From Escherichia phage Penshu1: a DNA stretch of 39,263 nt. Position 1 is the first letter of the stretch. Each line of letters starts with the position of its first letter. The stretch lies in sequence record MK903281.1, one strand, 5' to 3'. Of this stretch, positions 1 through 6,024 are shown in pieces. The notes under the pieces were generated by a model that worked only from the letters and a program-made list of their open reading frames with translations, ran no database searches and was not told the origin of the DNA. Position numbers and translations under genes: made by a program.

Positions 1-190
1 TCTCACAGTTCAAGAACCTCAAGTCTCCCCCATAGGCCATCTTTCAGTCCAGACCAAAGGCCCTACCCAGTCTATCATAAGGTTGGACCGATGGTCAAGA
101 CTTCAGGTCAACGATAGGTTGAGGCTATGGCTTAGGGAAGGACGATAGGTTGGGACTATGGGTCTGCCTCTGAGTCTCTATCTGTATAGT
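1..190. repeat. Left genome end, probable terminal-repeat region (right boundary approximate)
   Basis: Window begins TCTCACAG, the same octamer that begins the T7 genome, followed by GT-rich sequence resembling the end of the T7 terminal repeat. The right-end copy is not in the window, so the length cannot be fixed. Confidence 0.35.
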
Positions 191-206
191 GATATAGTAT
201 AACATT

Positions 207-300
207 ACGTCCTACACCTACAGTCTCACTAACCTACAGTCCAACACCTACAGTCATAGACCATGAGACACTCACAGCCTACAGTCATAGACCTACAGTT
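207..300. repeat. Array of five CCTACAGT short direct repeats next to the terminal repeat
   Basis: CCTACAGT at 217, 233, 247, 278 and 292 with about 15 bp spacing; analogous to the CCTAAAG-type repeats flanking the T7 terminal repeat. Confidence 0.7.
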
Positions 301-410
301 AATAGACACAAAGCTATAGACTTAAGGTCAAAGACATGTTAGTCAAAGACTATATCCTCTTACACCATGAGGCCGACGATAGCTCAATCAATATTATTTC
401 AAATTACCTA

Positions 411-439
411 TTGACTATGGGTCCAGACTATGGCCTAAT
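411..439 (+). promoter_or_regulatory. Possible weak host sigma70 promoter (A1-like)
   Basis: TTGACT at 411-416, 17-bp spacer, CCTAAT at 434-439. The -35 box matches T7 A1 but the -10 lacks the conserved TA at -12/-11. Confidence 0.3.
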
Positions 440-551
440 AGCTTCCGTCAACACGACACGGCAACAACCGGATAGTGAAGACGCCGGGTCATCCCGGTTA
501 AGTAGACAGCCTGATAAGTCGTACGAACAACAGGCAGATGACAGAAAGTAG

Positions 552-581
552 TTGACAAGCAGTACCAATAAGATGTAAGAT
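552..581 (+). promoter_or_regulatory. Host sigma70 early promoter (T7 A2-like)
   Basis: TTGACA at 552-557, 18-bp spacer, TAAGAT at 576-581; the upstream flank (CCGGTTAAGTAGACAGCCTGATAAGTCG) is near-identical to the flank of T7 promoter A2. Confidence 0.6.
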
Positions 582-699
582 GCACCACATCGAAACGACG
601 GTGAAGCCTACCACTGAAACAGGCTAGCATGGCGACGACAGCCAATGCGAATGCTCTTTAACAATCTGGATAACTCTTAATGTGCGCCGATAGCGACTA

Positions 700-735
700 A
701 CTACAGGGTCTTTGAAAGCTGAAGGCCCTGACTGA
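700..735 (+). promoter_or_regulatory. RNase III-like processing hairpin, family 1
   Basis: CAGGGTCTT (704-712) pairs with AAGGCCCTG (722-730) as a 9-bp stem with one G-U pair and a 9-nt loop, directly upstream of the first early gene; position matches T7 R0.3. Confidence 0.5.
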
Positions 736-760
736 TAGTCACTAACTAAAGGATAGACAA

Positions 761-949
761 ATGGCATACCGTAAGATGACCAAAGCAGAAGTGATAGCTG
801 AATGTCGTGAGACTTTCCGCGAGTTCCCTGAGATTTTCAGAGGTGACGACATAGCGAAACAGCAGCACTGGAATGACTACACCGATAGTCTATGCAAGGA
901 TGGCATTATTTCTAACCACCAGTACAACACTTGGTCTAACCCATTTTAA
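761..949 (+). CDS. Hypothetical early protein, 62 aa
   Basis: First ORF after the early promoter and hairpin; weak SD (AAAGGA). No resemblance to T7 Ocr (gp0.3) that I can recognise. Confidence 0.5.
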   Translation: MAYRKMTKAEVIAECRETFREFPEIFRGDDIAKQQHWNDYTDSLCKDGIISNHQYNTWSNPF

Positions 950-961
950 GGAACTACAACC

Positions 962-1486
962 ATGAAACTGATAGGCAAAGGCGCGTTCACTAAGTGCTAC
1001 CTGAAGGACTGCGGGAAGCGTGTACTTCTGGTCTCTTCAGACCCAATCAAGGAGTGTATGGCGTGGGGATGGTTCCCTGAGTCTTCACTGTTCCCTGAAG
1101 TCAAGATGATTGAGGTAGGCACGTATGAGATGGACTACATGCCGCCAACACGAGGTCTCAAGGCGCATTTAGAACATGACCAGTGGCAACTCTATCAGGT
1201 GCTGCGCGACTGCTTCTCACGGTCTCCGGTATACTCTCGACCTGACGAACTGTATCACAAGTGGTACGAGATATTCCAAGATGCACACGACAGGTCTGAG
1301 TCTGAGACTGTGCGTGAGGGCCTGATGGATGTTCTGATGGCGCTGGACGCTTGCGCTAACTTCGGGTCAGACATTCAGTTTGAGATAAGCCTACGCAATG
1401 TACGGGCTGTGGCTGGCAAGTTGATACTGGTCGATTGTTTCTTCCTTGTGTCCAAGCTGCGAGAGGTGAGGTCATCAAGATGGTAA
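962..1486 (+). CDS. Protein kinase-like early protein (gp0.7 kinase-domain-like, C-terminal shut-off domain absent)
   Basis: Gly-rich loop LIGKGAFTKCY near the N-terminus resembles MLGNGHFSAAY of T7 gp0.7; 174 aa versus 359 aa in T7; position matches gene 0.7. Confidence 0.5.
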   Translation: MKLIGKGAFTKCYLKDCGKRVLLVSSDPIKECMAWGWFPESSLFPEVKMIEVGTYEMDYMPPTRGLKAHLEHDQWQLYQVLRDCFSRSPVYSRPDELYHKWYEIFQDAHDRSESETVREGLMDVLMALDACANFGSDIQFEISLRNVRAVAGKLILVDCFFLVSKLREVRSSRW

Positions 1487-1629
1487 CTTATGGTCTCTGC
1501 CAGAAACACGTCACTAGCGCCCGGCTTATGGTTCATACCGGGCAGTTAAACCACGATGCGGCTATGCGTCTCTTGAAAGTGGTCTACAAGCGCCGCAAGC
1601 GAATGCACGACAGTTTGCACGCTGAGTGA
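1480..1629 (+). CDS. Small basic protein, 49 aa, translationally coupled to the kinase-like gene
   Basis: ATG at 1480 overlaps the upstream stop (ATGGTAA); GAGGTGAGG lies about 10 nt upstream; C-terminal KRRKR basic patch. Confidence 0.4.
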   Translation: MVTYGLCQKHVTSARLMVHTGQLNHDAAMRLLKVVYKRRKRMHDSLHAE

Positions 1630-1632
1630 TAG

Positions 1633-1665
1633 ACTACAGGTCCTTTGACTGAAGGGCCTGACTGA
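1633..1665 (+). promoter_or_regulatory. RNase III-like processing hairpin, family 1 (second copy)
   Basis: CAGGTCCTT (1637-1645) pairs with AAGGGCCTG (1652-1660); shares the extended motif CCTGACTGAT(A/T)GTCACT with the hairpin at 700-735. Confidence 0.5.
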
Positions 1666-1697
1666 TTGTCACTTTATAACTACAGAAGGAACGAATA

Positions 1698-2045
1698 ATG
1701 ACTGCTAAAACTCGCAATGTATTCTCGGTAGCATTTAAACTTAAAGTTGTTAACTACTACACCTCCCTGCCTGAGGGAGCTATGGATAGGGTGACGGAAA
1801 CCGCCCAAAAGTTCGGGGTGGGGACGAGTTCGGTGAAGCGCTGGTTTACTCAGTTTAGCCGTGGTGAGCTTACCATGGAAAACGCTATTGCGGTAAGTCG
1901 CAGGCCCTCTAAGGTAATAACAGGGGACACATACCACCTTGCAGGAAAGGACTTCAAGTCCAAAGACGAGGCGATACGCTATGCAGTCGAGCTGGCTGGT
2001 GGGCTTACTGTAACCAAAATGACAACCATCGCGGTGGAAGTGTAG
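1698..2045 (+). CDS. Transposase-type helix-turn-helix DNA-binding protein (IS3 OrfA / HTH_Tnp_1-like), 115 aa
   Basis: FSVAFKLKVVNYY...ETAQKFGVGTSSVKRWFTQF matches the IS3-family OrfA HTH pattern (FxxEFKxxxV...xxAxxxGVxxStlxRWxxQ); RBS GAAGGA upstream; no DDE transposase partner nearby. Confidence 0.6.
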   Translation: MTAKTRNVFSVAFKLKVVNYYTSLPEGAMDRVTETAQKFGVGTSSVKRWFTQFSRGELTMENAIAVSRRPSKVITGDTYHLAGKDFKSKDEAIRYAVELAGGLTVTKMTTIAVEV

Positions 2046-2119
2046 GAGAGTGGTAGACGAGAGGTCATCGACTGATAGGTGGCCTCAAAGATTACCACTT
2101 ACATTGATAGGAGTTAACT

Positions 2120-2209
2120 ATGAACATCGGCTACTGGGTATGCTTATCTCCGGTAATCTTTCTGATAGCTTGGGGGCTTCTGGACGCAATCAAGCGAGGG
2201 TCATTCTAA
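2120..2209 (+). CDS. Small hydrophobic peptide, 29 aa (MNIGYWVCLSPVIFLIAWGLLDAIKRGSF)
   Basis: ATG at 2120 preceded by TAGGAG with 6-nt spacing; single predicted TM helix; stop overlaps the next start (TAATG). Confidence 0.35.
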   Translation: MNIGYWVCLSPVIFLIAWGLLDAIKRGSF

Positions 2210-2406
2210 TGAGCTGGATACTTCCGGTTATCTTCGGTTACGGACTTATCGCCTACGTGATGGGGAGAGACATCAACAAGGCGCGTAAAGTCTACAAATT
2301 AAACTATGTACGTCTAGGTCGCTGGACTGTACGCCAACCTAACGGTCGATTCATGCGTAACTTAGCGAACGTCTGGGATATAGCAACTCTTGGGAGCAAA
2401 CTATAA
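2209..2406 (+). CDS. Small membrane protein, 65 aa
   Basis: Internal ATG of track ORF 2050..2406 preceded by GAGGG; hydrophobic stretch ILPVIFGYGLIAYVMG; the N-terminal extension from 2050 has no RBS. Confidence 0.45.
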   Translation: MSWILPVIFGYGLIAYVMGRDINKARKVYKLNYVRLGRWTVRQPNGRFMRNLANVWDIATLGSKL

Positions 2407-2666
2407 TGAAAACCGCATACACTCACCGCCACTCTTCACACACCGCACTTCAACAGCAGGAGCGTGACCGGGTACTGCAAGCAAGACTCCGGGCTGAGGG
2501 CCATAAGTCCGAGCTGATGGGTCTGATATATGGTGGAAAACCAATCACTGACGACGGCAAACTTCTGGTCTCAGGCTGGAAGGCAATAGACCAACGGTCA
2601 ACCATCAAGCACACGACCCATGGTGACTTCAGTCATCTTCACGCTAACCCACTGATATGCAAGTGA
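2406..2666 (+). CDS. Hypothetical early protein, 86 aa
   Basis: ORF with coupled start (TAATGA overlap) and GGGAG upstream; no recognisable motif. Confidence 0.5.
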   Translation: MKTAYTHRHSSHTALQQQERDRVLQARLRAEGHKSELMGLIYGGKPITDDGKLLVSGWKAIDQRSTIKHTTHGDFSHLHANPLICK

Positions 2667-2672
2667 TTCTGA

Positions 2673-2693
2673 CTTAACTATCACTATAGGACT
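2673..2693 (+). promoter_or_regulatory. Phage RNAP promoter upstream of the RNAP gene (variant CTTAACTATCACTATAGGACT)
   Basis: Matches the 10-copy phage promoter family; +1 G at 2689; lies 71 nt upstream of the RNAP start codon. Confidence 0.6.
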
Positions 2694-2763
2694 CAAGGTC
2701 TAAGACTCCAAGTGAAAGACCAAAGAGACTTTAAGTGAAAGACTAATAACAAGGACTTTAAGT

Positions 2764-5445
2764 ATGAGCGTCATCTCTATTGACAAACACGACTTCTCTG
2801 ATGTGTCTAACGCCATTGAGCCGTTTAACCTGCTGGCTGACCACTATGGGCAAGACCTTGCAGTCAAACAGCTTCAGCTTGAGCATGAGGCATACACTGA
2901 AGGCGAGCGACGTTTCATCAAGAACCTTGAGCGACAGACTGAGCGTGGGGAACTGGCAGACAATCAGGTCGCCAAGCCTCTTATGCAGACTCTGGTCCCT
3001 AAGATTGCGCAAGCCGTTAAGGAGTGGCATGAAGGTCAAGACGGGAAGCTGTCAACCTCTCGTCCTAGCGTAGCTTTCACCATGTTGAGCACCGAAGAGA
3101 AGGTTGTTAAAGACCGCTCCCTACGCATCTCCTGCGAGTCTGCTGCGGTTATCATACTGAAGGTCATACTCTCCAAGCTGGTCAAGCCTGAAGGGATACC
3201 GATTACACCGATGGCCTCCGCGATAGGTCGCACACTTGAGGACGAAATCCGCTTCGGGCGCATCCGTGACAAGGAGCAGGAACACTTCAAGAAGGCGATA
3301 GCTGAGAACCTGAACAAGCGAGCCGGGGCATCCTACAAGAAGGCCTACATGCAAGCGGTTGAGACATCCATGCTGGAGCAGGGTCAACTGGAAGATGCGT
3401 GGGGGACTTGGAGTCCGACCGAGGCGGTACACGTTGGAATCAAGACGCTTGAGATTGTCATCCAGTCAACACAACTGGTCGAGCTTAAGCGCTACGGTGC
3501 TGGCAATGCAGCGGCTGACGTAGAGATGGTCCACCTGTCAGACTTTTGGGTAAAGAAGATGGCACAACGAGGATTTAGCCTTGCGGGCATCTCTCCAGTC
3601 TACCAGCCTTGCGTCGTTCCACCTAAGCCGTGGACCGGTGTCGTAGGCGGTGGGTACTGGGCCAAAGGTCGCAGACCACTACCACTGATTCGCTTAGGGT
3701 CTAAGTCTGCGGTGGCACGTTATGAAGACGTGTACATGCCTGAAGTCTATGACGCTGTGAATATCGTCCAGAATACGCCTTGGAAAGTGAACAAGAAGGT
3801 TCTGGACGTGGTGAACATGGTAGAGAAGCTGAACAACACGCCTATTGATGACATTCCTCAGATGGAGCCGCTGAAGCCTGAAGACTATGCGGGTGAGACT
3901 GAAGAGGAACTCAAGGCATGGAAGAAAGCTGCTGCTGGTATCTATCGCCGCGAGAAGGCCCGACAGTCACGCAGATTGTCACTTAGCTTTATCGTTAACC
4001 AAGCGAACAAGTTCTCTCAGTTCAAGGCCATCTGGTTCCCGTACAACATGGACTGGCGCGGTCGCGTCTACGCTGTGCCGATGTTCAACCCTCAGGGTAA
4101 CGACATGCAGAAGGGTCTCCTAACTCTGGCAGTCGGTAAGCCTATTGGTGCCAATGGTTTCAAATGGCTGAAGGTCCACGGTGCAAACTGTGCGGGTATT
4201 GATAAAGTAACCTTCGAGGAGCGCATCAAGTGGGTGGAAGACAACCACGACAACATAATGGCCACTGCTAAGGCACCGATGGACAGCATTGAGTGGTGGG
4301 GTAAGTTAGACTCTCCGTTCTGCTTCCTAGCGTTCTGCTTCGAGTATGCTGGCGTAATGCATCACGGATTGTCTTACTCCTGCTCGCTGCCGATAGCGTT
4401 CGATGGGTCCTGCTCTGGGATTCAGCACTTCAGCGCGATGCTTCGCGACCACATCGGTGGACATGCGGTAAACCTGACGCCTTCCGGTAAGGTCCAAGAC
4501 ATCTACCGCATCGTGTCTGACCGCATTGAGGAAGAGCTTAAAGTCCTGCTGGTTAACGGCACGGACAACGAGATGGTAACTCACGAGGACAAGAAAACTG
4601 GTGAGATTACCGAACGTCTCAAGCTGGGGACACGAGAGCTGGCCCGGCAGTGGCTGACTTACGGTATGTCACGCAAGGTGACTAAGCGTTCGGTCATGAC
4701 TCTGGCCTACGGGTCGAAAGAGTACGGCTTTGCAGACCAAGTGTACGAGGACATCGTGATGTCAGCGATTGACTCAGGGTCTGGCGCTATGTTCACTGAG
4801 CCAAGACAAGCGTCTCGCTTCATGGCTAAGATGATTTGGGAAGCTGTGAGTGTGACTGTAGTTGCTGCGGTTGACGCAATGAAGTGGCTTCAAGGTGCTG
4901 CCAAGCTGCTGGCGGCTGAAGTGAAGGACAAGAAGACTGGAGAAATCCTGAAGCCTTGCCTTCCGGTACACTGGGTCACACCTGACGGTTTCCCGGTCTG
5001 GCAGGAATACCGCAAGAAGGATACCACTCGTCTGAACCTGATGTTCTTAGGGTCCTTCAACCTTCAACCTACGGTCAACAAGGGCACGAAGAAGGAGCTT
5101 GACAAGCACAAGCAGGAGTCAGGCATTAGCCCGAACTTCGTCCACTCACAGGATGGAAGCCACCTACGCAAGACCGTAGTTCACACGCACCGCAAGTATG
5201 GCGTGATGTCATTCGCAGTGATTCACGATAGCTTCGGGACTATCCCGGCTGACGCTGAGTATCTGTTCCGTGGTGTCCGTGAAACGATGGTCGAGACCTA
5301 CCGCGACAACGATGTGCTGCTTGACTTCTATGAGCAGTTTGAATACCAGCTTCATGAGAGCCAGCGCGACAAGTTGCCTGAGCTTCCGAAGAAAGGTAAA
5401 CTGAATATCGAAGACATTCTGTCTTCAGACTTTGCATTCGCTTAA
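2764..5445 (+). CDS. Single-subunit DNA-directed RNA polymerase (T7 gene 1 homologue), 893 aa
   Basis: DGSCSGIQHFSAMLRD, IHDSFGTIPADA and C-terminal ...DFAFA match T7 RNAP signature segments; size matches the 883-aa T7 enzyme. Confidence 0.97.
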   Translation: MSVISIDKHDFSDVSNAIEPFNLLADHYGQDLAVKQLQLEHEAYTEGERRFIKNLERQTERGELADNQVAKPLMQTLVPKIAQAVKEWHEGQDGKLSTSRPSVAFTMLSTEEKVVKDRSLRISCESAAVIILKVILSKLVKPEGIPITPMASAIGRTLEDEIRFGRIRDKEQEHFKKAIAENLNKRAGASYKKAYMQAVETSMLEQGQLEDAWGTWSPTEAVHVGIKTLEIVIQSTQLVELKRYGAGNAAADVEMVHLSDFWVKKMAQRGFSLAGISPVYQPCVVPPKPWTGVVGGGYWAKGRRPLPLIRLGSKSAVARYEDVYMPEVYDAVNIVQNTPWKVNKKVLDVVNMVEKLNNTPIDDIPQMEPLKPEDYAGETEEELKAWKKAAAGIYRREKARQSRRLSLSFIVNQANKFSQFKAIWFPYNMDWRGRVYAVPMFNPQGNDMQKGLLTLAVGKPIGANGFKWLKVHGANCAGIDKVTFEERIKWVEDNHDNIMATAKAPMDSIEWWGKLDSPFCFLAFCFEYAGVMHHGLSYSCSLPIAFDGSCSGIQHFSAMLRDHIGGHAVNLTPSGKVQDIYRIVSDRIEEELKVLLVNGTDNEMVTHEDKKTGEITERLKLGTRELARQWLTYGMSRKVTKRSVMTLAYGSKEYGFADQVYEDIVMSAIDSGSGAMFTEPRQASRFMAKMIWEAVSVTVVAAVDAMKWLQGAAKLLAAEVKDKKTGEILKPCLPVHWVTPDGFPVWQEYRKKDTTRLNLMFLGSFNLQPTVNKGTKKELDKHKQESGISPNFVHSQDGSHLRKTVVHTHRKYGVMSFAVIHDSFGTIPADAEYLFRGVRETMVETYRDNDVLLDFYEQFEYQLHESQRDKLPELPKKGKLNIEDILSSDFAFA

Positions 5446-5505
5446 CAGGAGAGAGTTATGAAATTTGCACATAAGCAGACTGGCGTTAAGGGTGGGACTT
5501 AAATC

Positions 5506-5673
5506 GTGACCGTAACAGAACACAACGGCAAGGGTCTGGTGAAGACCACAGTCATTCCTACCGAAATGTCAAAGCAGCTTAACGTCCCATTCAAGACCCT
5601 CGTCTATCTTGTGGAATCCAGCCACGAGAAGTACCTGAAGGACGCAGTGACCAAGCTGGAGCAGGCCAAATGA
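5506..5673 (+). CDS. Possible small ORF (GTG start), in frame with a 14-codon ATG-initiated peptide ending at TAA 5500-5502
   Basis: Strong RBS (AGGAGAG) serves ATG 5458, which hits an in-frame TAA after 14 codons; the reading frame stays open from the GTG at 5506 to 5673. Confidence 0.2.
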   Translation: MTVTEHNGKGLVKTTVIPTEMSKQLNVPFKTLVYLVESSHEKYLKDAVTKLEQAK

Positions 5674-5749
5674 CAGACCTACAGTTACTGGCCTTGTGGC
5701 TGGGAGCACTAGCAGTATTCACTTTAATCCATCGCAGAAGAGGTTAACC

Positions 5750-5770
5750 CTAAACTATCACTATAGGATT
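5750..5770 (+). promoter_or_regulatory. Phage RNAP promoter (phi1.1-like)
   Basis: CTAAACTATCACTATAGGATT, +1 G at 5766. Confidence 0.75.
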
Positions 5771-5812
5771 AGACTCAAGGTCATGACTCAAAGTCGTGGC
5801 CTTCATGATTAA
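5770..5812 (+). promoter_or_regulatory. RNase III-like processing hairpin, family 2 (R1.1-like)
   Basis: AAGGTCAT (5777-5784) pairs with GTGGCCTT (5796-5803) using G-U wobbles; the conserved TAGACTCAAGGTCAT...GTGGCCTT(T/C)ATG motif recurs at 12520 and 36233. Confidence 0.55.
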
Positions 5813-5844
5813 CCATAAATAAACACTACTGGAGATTTAACCGT

Positions 5845-6024
5845 ATGTATCAGAACACTATCAACTTCGAGCGCATCCGTGAACGTCAGCAGACTGAAGG
5901 TTACATTCCTAAGGGCCGCAAGCTGAACAAGACTAAACGTGGCGGTGGCGTGAAGGGTGCTTTCCGTAACGCTGAAGGTAAAGACTCTATGGTTAACCAA
6001 GAGAAGTATTTCGTAGGAGCATAG
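5845..6024 (+). CDS. gp1.1-like small basic protein, 59 aa
   Basis: ATG at 5845 with GGAGA RBS; contains GRKLNKTKR as in T7 gp1.1; below the 60-aa cutoff of the ORF track. Confidence 0.55.
   Translation: MYQNTINFERIRERQQTEGYIPKGRKLNKTKRGGGVKGAFRNAEGKDSMVNQEKYFVGA

Follow-up and report, generated by a model that had tools for sequence, protein, structure and literature searches.

The open reading frame (ORF) at positions 1698..2045 of the Escherichia phage Penshu1 genome is a real gene, under purifying selection in both of its halves. It represents an uncharacterised new family within a familiar kind, the small helix-turn-helix (HTH) accessory proteins that phages encode in their early regions. 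Its product joins an exchangeable N-terminal HTH domain to a C-terminal half that had been missed in an earlier note on this DNA and that is a separate orphan module and the most conserved part of the protein. The gene appears to be neither a transposon remnant nor a transposition gene, its resemblance to transposases being visible at superfamily level only.

Genome context and distribution of the gene

The window, i.e. the whole stretch of 39,263 nt that was analysed (MK903281.1), is a complete or near-complete genome of a Kayfunavirus (Autographiviridae, Studiervirinae, T7-like). Its positions 1-6 kb share 90-93% identity with the E. coli phages BUCT788, KM02 and U8 and with Citrobacter phage SH3. 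The gene and the parts of its product are as follows:

1698..2045, plus strand: complete ORF with an ATG start, 115 aa and a stop codon, encoding a two-domain early accessory protein
1685..1690, plus strand: Shine-Dalgarno sequence GAAGGA, read from the sequence, 7 nt before the ATG
1698..1862, plus strand: codons 1-55, basic three-helix HTH domain of the homeodomain-like / Brinker / transposase-OrfA class, class-A allele
1863..1928, plus strand: codons 56-77, linker with the conserved pattern G-E-L-x-x-x-N-A-I-A-V-S-R-(K/R)-P-x-K-V-I-x-G-D, the apparent joint of recombination between the N- and C-terminal parts
1929..2042, plus strand: codons 78-115, core of the C-terminal module (C-module), with a beta-hairpin, a helix and a beta-like C-terminal tail

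The single-subunit RNA polymerase gene extends over 2764..5445, and the phage-promoter core ACTATCACTATAGG occurs in ten copies, on the plus strand only, the first being at 2677. Since the ORF lies to the left of this first copy, host RNA polymerase is the only enzyme that can transcribe it, which places it in the class I early region. It is situated upstream of the RNA polymerase gene and of all ten promoter copies, and the earlier note is supported in describing a lone HTH protein of transposase type (OrfA class) among the early genes. The ORFs that follow encode 29, 65 and 86 aa, and none exceeds 120 aa before the RNA polymerase gene. On the other side, a homolog of gp0.4 is encoded at 1480..1629, directly upstream of a hairpin at 1626-1672. 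Its identity is supported by precomputed matches to PF26807 (Phage_T7_GP04) in P0028, which has the N-terminus of the gp0.4 homolog gene, and in the equivalent short gene of L014. The ORF at 962-1486 had been considered as a gp0.7-type kinase; blastp and Pfam gave no support and this assignment was dropped.

Homologs of the 115-aa protein were found by tblastn in 25 of 50,697 phage records and, among 5.8 billion proteins, in about 35 protein clusters, all from phage-sized or short metagenomic contigs. They are spread over at least five genera and two subfamilies of Autographiviridae, always intact. Furthermore, they occupy the same early slot in Przondovirus, Foetvirus, Pectobacterium phages and metagenomic T7-like genomes, with Ocr, SAM lyase, gp0.4 or gp0.7 kinase genes as neighbours. 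The isolated phages that carry the gene include SH3, SFPH2, BUCT788, GW1 and pO2. As a rough figure, the gene is present in one close relative in ten, since about 234 records match the first 6 kb of the window at ≥80% identity and only about 20 of them have it. The classical model phages T7, T3, K1F and SP6 are absent among the carriers. Ratios of dN to dS (Nei-Gojobori) range from 0.14 to 0.29 for the N-terminal half and from 0.05 to 0.17 for the C-terminal half.

A literature search found no paper addressing the gene, the papers combining Kayfunavirus and transposase mention transposases generically only, and the family is not mentioned in the accessory-gene screen of Silas et al. PADLOC gave no meaningful match. 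The protein JSS1_004 is an unrelated gp0.7-type kinase. One homolog bears the name 'SiR5 protein' in nr, for which a literature search gave nothing relevant; we suspect that the name derives from an HTH protein chosen as a target in structural genomics.

RNase III-type hairpins as joints of a gene cassette

The gene is flanked by two hairpins, and a third one of the same type is found further upstream:

1626..1672, plus strand: upstream hairpin with a 7-bp lower stem, a 4/5-nt internal loop and a 10-bp upper stem (-21 kcal/mol, z -3.83)
2048..2100, plus strand: downstream hairpin, RNase III-type (-25.8 kcal/mol, z -4.04)
692-743: third hairpin of the same type

The upstream hairpin matches the T7 hairpin 1430-1477 in its lower stem (GUGAUAG...UUGUCAC in the window, GUGAUAG...UUAUCAC in T7), its internal loop and its upper stem, and both directly follow gene 0.4. 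We take this T7 hairpin to be the R0.5 RNase III site, which is not annotated in the T7 record used. Dunn and Studier reportedly placed, in 1983, the R0.5 cut at T7 nt 1468. Transferred from this cut, the predicted cleavage area of the window hairpin would lie on the 3' side of the internal loop, at about 1661-1665; for the downstream end of the mRNA, the prediction is near 2087-2091. The RNase III-like hairpin that the earlier note had placed before the gene is thus a homolog, in sequence, fold and position, of the T7 hairpin taken to be R0.5, and it has a counterpart after the gene. If both are cleaved as in T7, release of the gene as a monocistronic mRNA of about 430 nt is plausible. Rfam, which has no family for T7-type RNase III sites, gave no match at E≤1 for positions 1-6000 of the window. 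The slot of T7 genes 0.5/0.6 is occupied in the window by the gene studied here, and T7 gp0.5 and gp0.6A gave no blastp match to its product at E≤10.

The gene is missing from KM02 and U8, two close relatives in which the sequence corresponding to the window up to 1674 (KM02) or 1631 (U8) directly abuts that from 2048 onward. Moreover, the two flanking hairpins cross-match at 79% as direct copies. Taken together, these gene-less junctions and the similarity of the hairpins indicate that the hairpins are the joints at which the cassette is present or absent. The locus also illustrates how RNase III hairpins can act as junctions for the gain and loss of early-gene cassettes.

A basic homeodomain-like domain at the N-terminus

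Family-level profiles and predicted helices together make it a sound conclusion that the N-terminal domain is a homeodomain-like three-helix HTH. The fold covers residues ~6-55 of the window protein, with helices predicted by AlphaFold2 at 11-23, 31-39 and 43-54 (pLDDT 79-89 in 10-residue blocks). Searched alone against Pfam, the window protein stays below all cut-offs: BrkDBD scores 21.7 bits (GA 23.4; E 2e-4), HTH_Tnp_1 (PF01527) 14.9 bits (GA 24.1; E 0.033), and the matches to HTH_28 and HTH_23 are also sub-threshold. In PHROGs, it matches phrog_151, 'transposase', with an E-value of 7e-4. At family level, 12 of 28 members match HTH_Tnp_1 at E<0.01 (best 9.4e-7), and the homolog from Pectobacterium phage JJY1 exceeds the gathering thresholds of both HTH_23 and HTH_Tnp_1 (32.6 bits for the latter). 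The HTH assignment of the earlier note therefore holds at family level, while the window protein taken alone gives sub-threshold matches. The observation made in that note is confirmed, and its interpretation finds partial support.

Among solved structures, the family profile matches the DNA-binding domain (DBD) of Brinker (2glo) with an E-value of 5.1e-5. Foldseek likewise gave Brinker and homeodomains as best neighbours of the N-terminal domain (TM 0.68 on target, probability 0.93), none of them statistically significant. With the full model, Foldseek found nothing in the PDB at E≤0.001 and returned generic homeodomains only, and a single-sequence search of solved structures gave only noise (antibodies, repebodies). 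Brinker DBD (PF09607; 2glo) is hence both the best single-profile and the best solved-structure match of the domain. However, it belongs to a eukaryotic transcription repressor, the likeness is at fold or superfamily level only, and nothing in Brinker corresponds to the C-module.

The class-A HTH domain of the window protein has a net charge of +6 and a pI of 10.4. All classes of N-terminal domain are strongly basic (net charge +3 to +7, pI 9.0-10.4) despite sharing only about 30% identity, and this conserved charge fits a putative DNA-binding function. A comparison of three carriers with the gene-less KM02 and the class-B phage pO2, which is a weak test since it considers exact matches only in five genomes, found no carrier-specific k-mer (k≥11) or palindrome that could be the DNA target. 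The early promoter region is alike across allele classes at blastn resolution.

A conserved orphan module at the C-terminus

Residues 56-115 are almost invariant in the homolog alignment (36 invariant columns, alignment A1), whereas the HTH half is highly divergent and in some homologs gives way to an altogether different sequence. Four residues, Y79, F86, G101 and G102, are the same in every member of the family. Between the window and pO2, the C-terminal 60 codons show 18 synonymous versus 9 non-synonymous codon differences, which corresponds for the C-module to a dS of 0.95 and a dN of 0.055 (Nei-Gojobori). Such a high dS associated with a low dN indicates that the conservation of the module results from selection and not from recently shared DNA.

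A hidden Markov model of the C-module alone, searched against 1.84 billion representative proteins, gave 19 matches at E≤0.001, about 15 of them genuine and three being repeat-protein artefacts. The genuine matches are in every case early proteins of T7-like phages, 56-164 aa long, and in those that are not chimeric the module is without exception preceded by one or two HTHs. For instance, P0047, a member with two HTHs, is encoded between a SAM lyase gene and a gp0.7 kinase gene in T7-like genomes of 39.8 kb.

The C-module has no match in the PDB, either by sequence or by fold. C-modules are near neutral in charge. AlphaFold2 models of the module, which are only moderately confident (pLDDT 65-72), predict a beta-hairpin (residues 79-86) followed by a helix (89-99), the last 13 residues being beta-like and unpaired. 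The NAIAVSRKP linker is well conserved and yet predicted to be disordered, with pLDDT <50 in both models. The sole Pfam likeness is to DUF2188 (PF09954), which is weakly similar to the helix region of the C-module ('F.sK.EAi.yA.elaGG') and has a similar predicted beta-beta-alpha order. However, this likeness extends over ~20 residues only and lies below the gathering score (E 0.03-0.05, 12-15 bits versus GA 22). The idea of an HNH/beta-beta-alpha-metal nuclease was rejected, His80 not being conserved in distant members.

Recombination between the two halves and chimeric proteins

The N-terminal halves of the Kayfunavirus-type proteins fall into at least four classes that share 30-47% identity, i.e. 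they are as distant as homologs from different genera. The C-terminal halves of the same proteins are 75-97% identical, with relationships that cut across the N-terminal classes. For instance, P0025 and P0003 are 90% identical in the C-terminal half and 33% in the N-terminal half; conversely, P0003 and P0004 are 93% identical in the N-terminal half and 77% in the C-terminal half. The same break is seen in the DNA. Upstream of the gene, the class-B phage pO2 and the window share 88% identity; over 1675-1862 they cannot be aligned, and from 1863, i.e. codon 56, onward they share 80%. Nucleotide homology to Dev2 also restarts at 1863, and homology to IMEP24 at 1879. Moreover, among class-A phages, dS is 3-5 fold lower in the N-terminal half (0.06-0.11) than in the C-terminal half (0.28-0.42). 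These discordant identities and dS values indicate that the two halves have different histories and were joined within the conserved linker.

In five cases, the C-module is found in frame behind an N-terminal part that is not an HTH:

IMEP24: almost complete Ocr, followed by the C-module in frame
Dev2 gp0.2: fragment of ~45 residues with a weak S-AdoMet_lyase match, followed by the C-module in frame
P0028: gp0.4 fragment, followed by the C-module in frame
P0006: short unrelated leader, followed by the C-module in frame
P0036: short unrelated leader, followed by the C-module in frame

The junction of IMEP24 lies at a CGCTAYTGC microhomology, which indicates that the chimeras are deletion products. 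Such deletion products have long been known in the early regions of T7. Each chimera was found in one phage or cluster only. In the frame-unbiased tblastn set, both chimeras (2/2) are in frame, an outcome expected by chance with a probability of ~0.11. These observations therefore suggest, short of proof, that selection retains the C-module in frame.

Possible role of the protein

The early accessory genes of T7-like phages house anti-restriction and host-takeover functions such as Ocr, SAM lyase, gp0.4 and the gp0.7 kinase. Since the family sits in this early accessory slot, a new host-directed function is a reasonable possibility for it. The reading that we favour, tentatively and with slightly more doubt than confidence, is that of a DNA-bound early accessory protein involved in host takeover or counter-defence, in which the C-module would serve for self-association and/or partner contact. 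The gene is an accessory gene of class I in T7-like phages. According to this scenario, it would form part of the early polycistronic transcript made by host RNA polymerase, from which host RNase III would excise its own mRNA of ~430 nt by cutting the R0.5-type hairpins on both sides. The basic three-helix HTH would bind DNA, while the conserved linker and the orphan beta-beta-alpha(-beta) C-module would allow self-association and/or contact with a conserved partner. Within minutes of the start of infection, the protein would then act on the DNA of the host or of the phage, with a putative host-directed function, and it would not act as a transposition protein. Exchangeable HTH alleles, presumably differing in DNA specificity, would be joined to one and the same C-module by recombination in the linker. 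Since the models of the C-module are of low confidence (pLDDT 65-72), the role assigned to it here is a guess. Further points that weigh against this reading are the lack of a DNA target in the k-mer comparison, an early promoter region that is alike in the different allele classes and the sub-threshold HTH scores of the window protein.

The HTH-less, in-frame C-modules of Dev2, IMEP24, P0028, P0006 and P0036 are hard to explain if the module is a mere dimerisation domain for the HTH. They lead to the main alternative, which we consider somewhat unlikely: the C-module would itself be the active effector, binding a conserved protein of the host or the phage and serving counter-defence or host takeover, and the HTH would be a replaceable add-on for targeting or autoregulation. 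Such an effector could account for a module that is the most conserved part of the protein, both by its invariant columns and by its low omega (0.05-0.17), that is paired with at least four divergent HTH alleles, that persists behind unrelated N-termini and whose gene adjoins known host-directed early genes. The predicted disorder of the conserved linker would also be expected of a segment that folds on contact with a partner. However, an HTH is kept in every non-chimeric member among the 1.84 billion representatives. Furthermore, the chimeras are single instances formed at microhomologies and may be recent deletions that have not yet decayed, their retention in frame in the unbiased set (2/2) has the chance level given above, and the module shows no similarity to known anti-defence or defence proteins.

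A narrower form of this proposal, which we regard as unlikely, is that the C-module is a stand-alone effector specific to T7-like phages and binding a protein conserved in enterobacteria, with a role in either defence or housekeeping, the HTH alleles being targeting or regulatory heads. If so, the fusion of Ocr to the C-module in IMEP24 would be a two-function anti-host protein. AcrIIA1 is a two-domain anti-CRISPR protein that combines an HTH regulator domain with an inhibitor domain. As a purely hypothetical parallel to the effector reading, it shares with the family an N-terminal HTH, a separate small C-terminal domain and its nature as an early phage accessory gene. In contrast, in the phage family described here the C-terminal domain is the conserved half and the HTH is the variable one.

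Relationship to transposases

Compared with our preferred reading of a DNA-bound early accessory protein, a third explanation is improbable, namely that an IS3-family OrfA was captured from a host insertion sequence (IS) and domesticated as a transcription regulator. It draws on the resemblance of the ~50-residue N-terminal three-helix HTH to OrfA of the IS3 family and to InsA of the IS2 type (small, basic, with a 'ys.eFK..vv ... W' pattern), on the fact that the best profile neighbours are transposase HTH families (HTH_Tnp_1, phrog_151 and the NCBIfam IS3/IS630/IS66-TnpA models) and on the name 'Transposase' given in UniProt to the SFPH2 and Phoria orthologs. However, the matches span only ~45 residues of the HTH and are far under the family cut-offs, the NCBIfam models scoring 12-25 bits versus cut-offs of 74-160 for the HTH part only. 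Moreover, the Brinker DBD outscores every transposase model for the window protein, and the IS629 OrfA structure matches the family profile with an E-value of only 1.9.

A donor is also lacking in the databases searched. The N-terminal domain alone, searched as a profile against 5.8 billion proteins, retrieved members of the phage family only, apart from one marginal 'transposase' match (E 0.07) that is the nearest non-phage relative. The earlier note had suggested a search of the host genome for the IS element encoding the closest OrfA; there was no blastn match in 5,426 complete E. coli genomes and no tblastn match in 72,556 plasmids. The family is encoded only in lytic T7-like phages, unlike OrfA of insertion sequences.

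The architecture expected of an IS3 element is missing as well. The earlier note had reported neither a DDE transposase ORF nor inverted repeats nor a frameshift partner, and the ORF list, a repeat search and a reading of the sequence bear this out. The ORFs around the gene are all too short to encode a DDE transposase (OrfB), and no A6G-type slippery heptamer or frameshift partner is found at the 3' end of the gene. No inverted repeats bracket it: the sole pair spanning it is 16 nt long and 88% identical, which is at chance level, and one of its arms lies inside another ORF. In addition, OrfA proteins have a leucine-zipper C-terminus, whereas the AlphaFold2 models show no leucine zipper or coiled coil after the HTH: they predict a disordered linker, a beta-hairpin and a helix of 11-12 residues, with no long helix. 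The domesticated transposase HTH proposed in the earlier note is thus not upheld, no IS relative closer than superfamily level having been found.

The least probable explanation is a functionless passenger, i.e. a neutral 'moron' cassette or decaying fragment persisting between recombinogenic RNase III hairpins: the patchy distribution, the clean presence or absence between homologous hairpins and the frequent deletions yielding chimeras would suit it, but it is largely refuted by the strong purifying selection at high synonymous divergence seen between the window and pO2, by the maintenance of always intact copies across genera and subfamilies and by the good ribosome-binding site.

The name 'Transposase' was attached automatically to the SFPH2 and Phoria orthologs in UniProt and is misleading for a strictly lytic phage. 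Such a label could cause therapeutic phages that are strictly lytic to be mistaken for carriers of mobile-element genes.

Early-gene cassettes and their probable joints

Three related RNase III-type hairpins are spaced along the early operon.

692-743, + strand: RNase III-type hairpin
1626-1672, + strand: RNase III-type hairpin
2048-2100, + strand: RNase III-type hairpin

Breakpoints of gene presence and absence among the relatives fall at these hairpins, which therefore look like recombination joints of early-gene cassettes. In contrast to SH3, pO2 and IMEP24, the early region of the window carries neither an Ocr gene nor a SAM-lyase gene. The slot and the ORF that adjoins the gene of the 115-aa protein on its upstream side are as follows.

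761-1486, + strand: slot with a 62-aa ORF and a 174-aa ORF (962-1486) without Pfam match
1480-1629, + strand: 49-aa ORF (MVTYGLCQKHV...)

The 174-aa ORF is common to the window, U8 and KM02. Its tentative identification as a gp0.7-like kinase was supported neither by blastp nor by Pfam and was dropped. The 49-aa product appears to be a homolog of T7 gp0.4, an inhibitor of FtsZ. Precomputed matches to PF26807 (Phage_T7_GP04) exist for P0028, a chimeric homolog that bears the N-terminus of this ORF joined to the C-module (the conserved C-terminal ~60 residues of the 115-aa protein), and for the equivalent gene of another compared locus (L014); the 49-aa product itself gave no match in the Pfam scan and none by blastp against T7 gp0.4.

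Fusions of the C-module and annotation of homologs

Two natural in-frame fusion genes join the C-module to fragments of other early proteins. They are listed here with the long Ocr gene of pO2.

IMEP24 (L007), 1275-1835: Ocr residues ~1-128 fused to the C-module
Dev2 (L006), 759-1076: gp0.2, a ~45-residue N-terminal fragment of SAM lyase fused to the C-module
pO2 (L001), 675-1178: long Ocr, 167 aa

The Ocr proteins of Kayfunavirus are long (167 aa); a C-terminal extension of ~45 residues (YWVVDAKTGEII...LKVEDIN) follows the T7-type core. In IMEP24, the C-module stands in place of most of this extension. Dev2 gp0.2 is named 'SAM-dependent methyltransferase' in RefSeq, a label that looks wrong. 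Furthermore, the GenBank record of Shigella phage ESh23 (ON528733.1, 14535-14879) describes the ortholog as a 'nonfunctional hypothetical protein due to mutation', yet all 115 residues align without interruption (tblastn, 92% identity).

Promoters and repeats

The phage-promoter core ACTATCACTATAGG occurs in 10 copies on the + strand, whereas 0.28 would be expected by chance in the window.

2677-2690, + strand: first copy, just 5' of the RNA polymerase gene
5754, 7395, 8263, 16342, 19551, 20531, 25258, 32928 and 38671, + strand: the other nine copies

One pair of tandem 21-nt direct repeats (AGACTCCAAGTGAAAGACCAA and AGACTTTAAGTGAAAGACTAA; 2703-2746, + strand) lies between this first promoter and the RNA polymerase start codon. 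Arrays of short direct repeats, with units ACGATAGGTTG.GGCTATGG and CCTACAGTC, are also found near the left end of the window (111-161, 200-300 and 414-433, + strand); repeats of this kind adjoin the terminal repeat in T7-like genomes.
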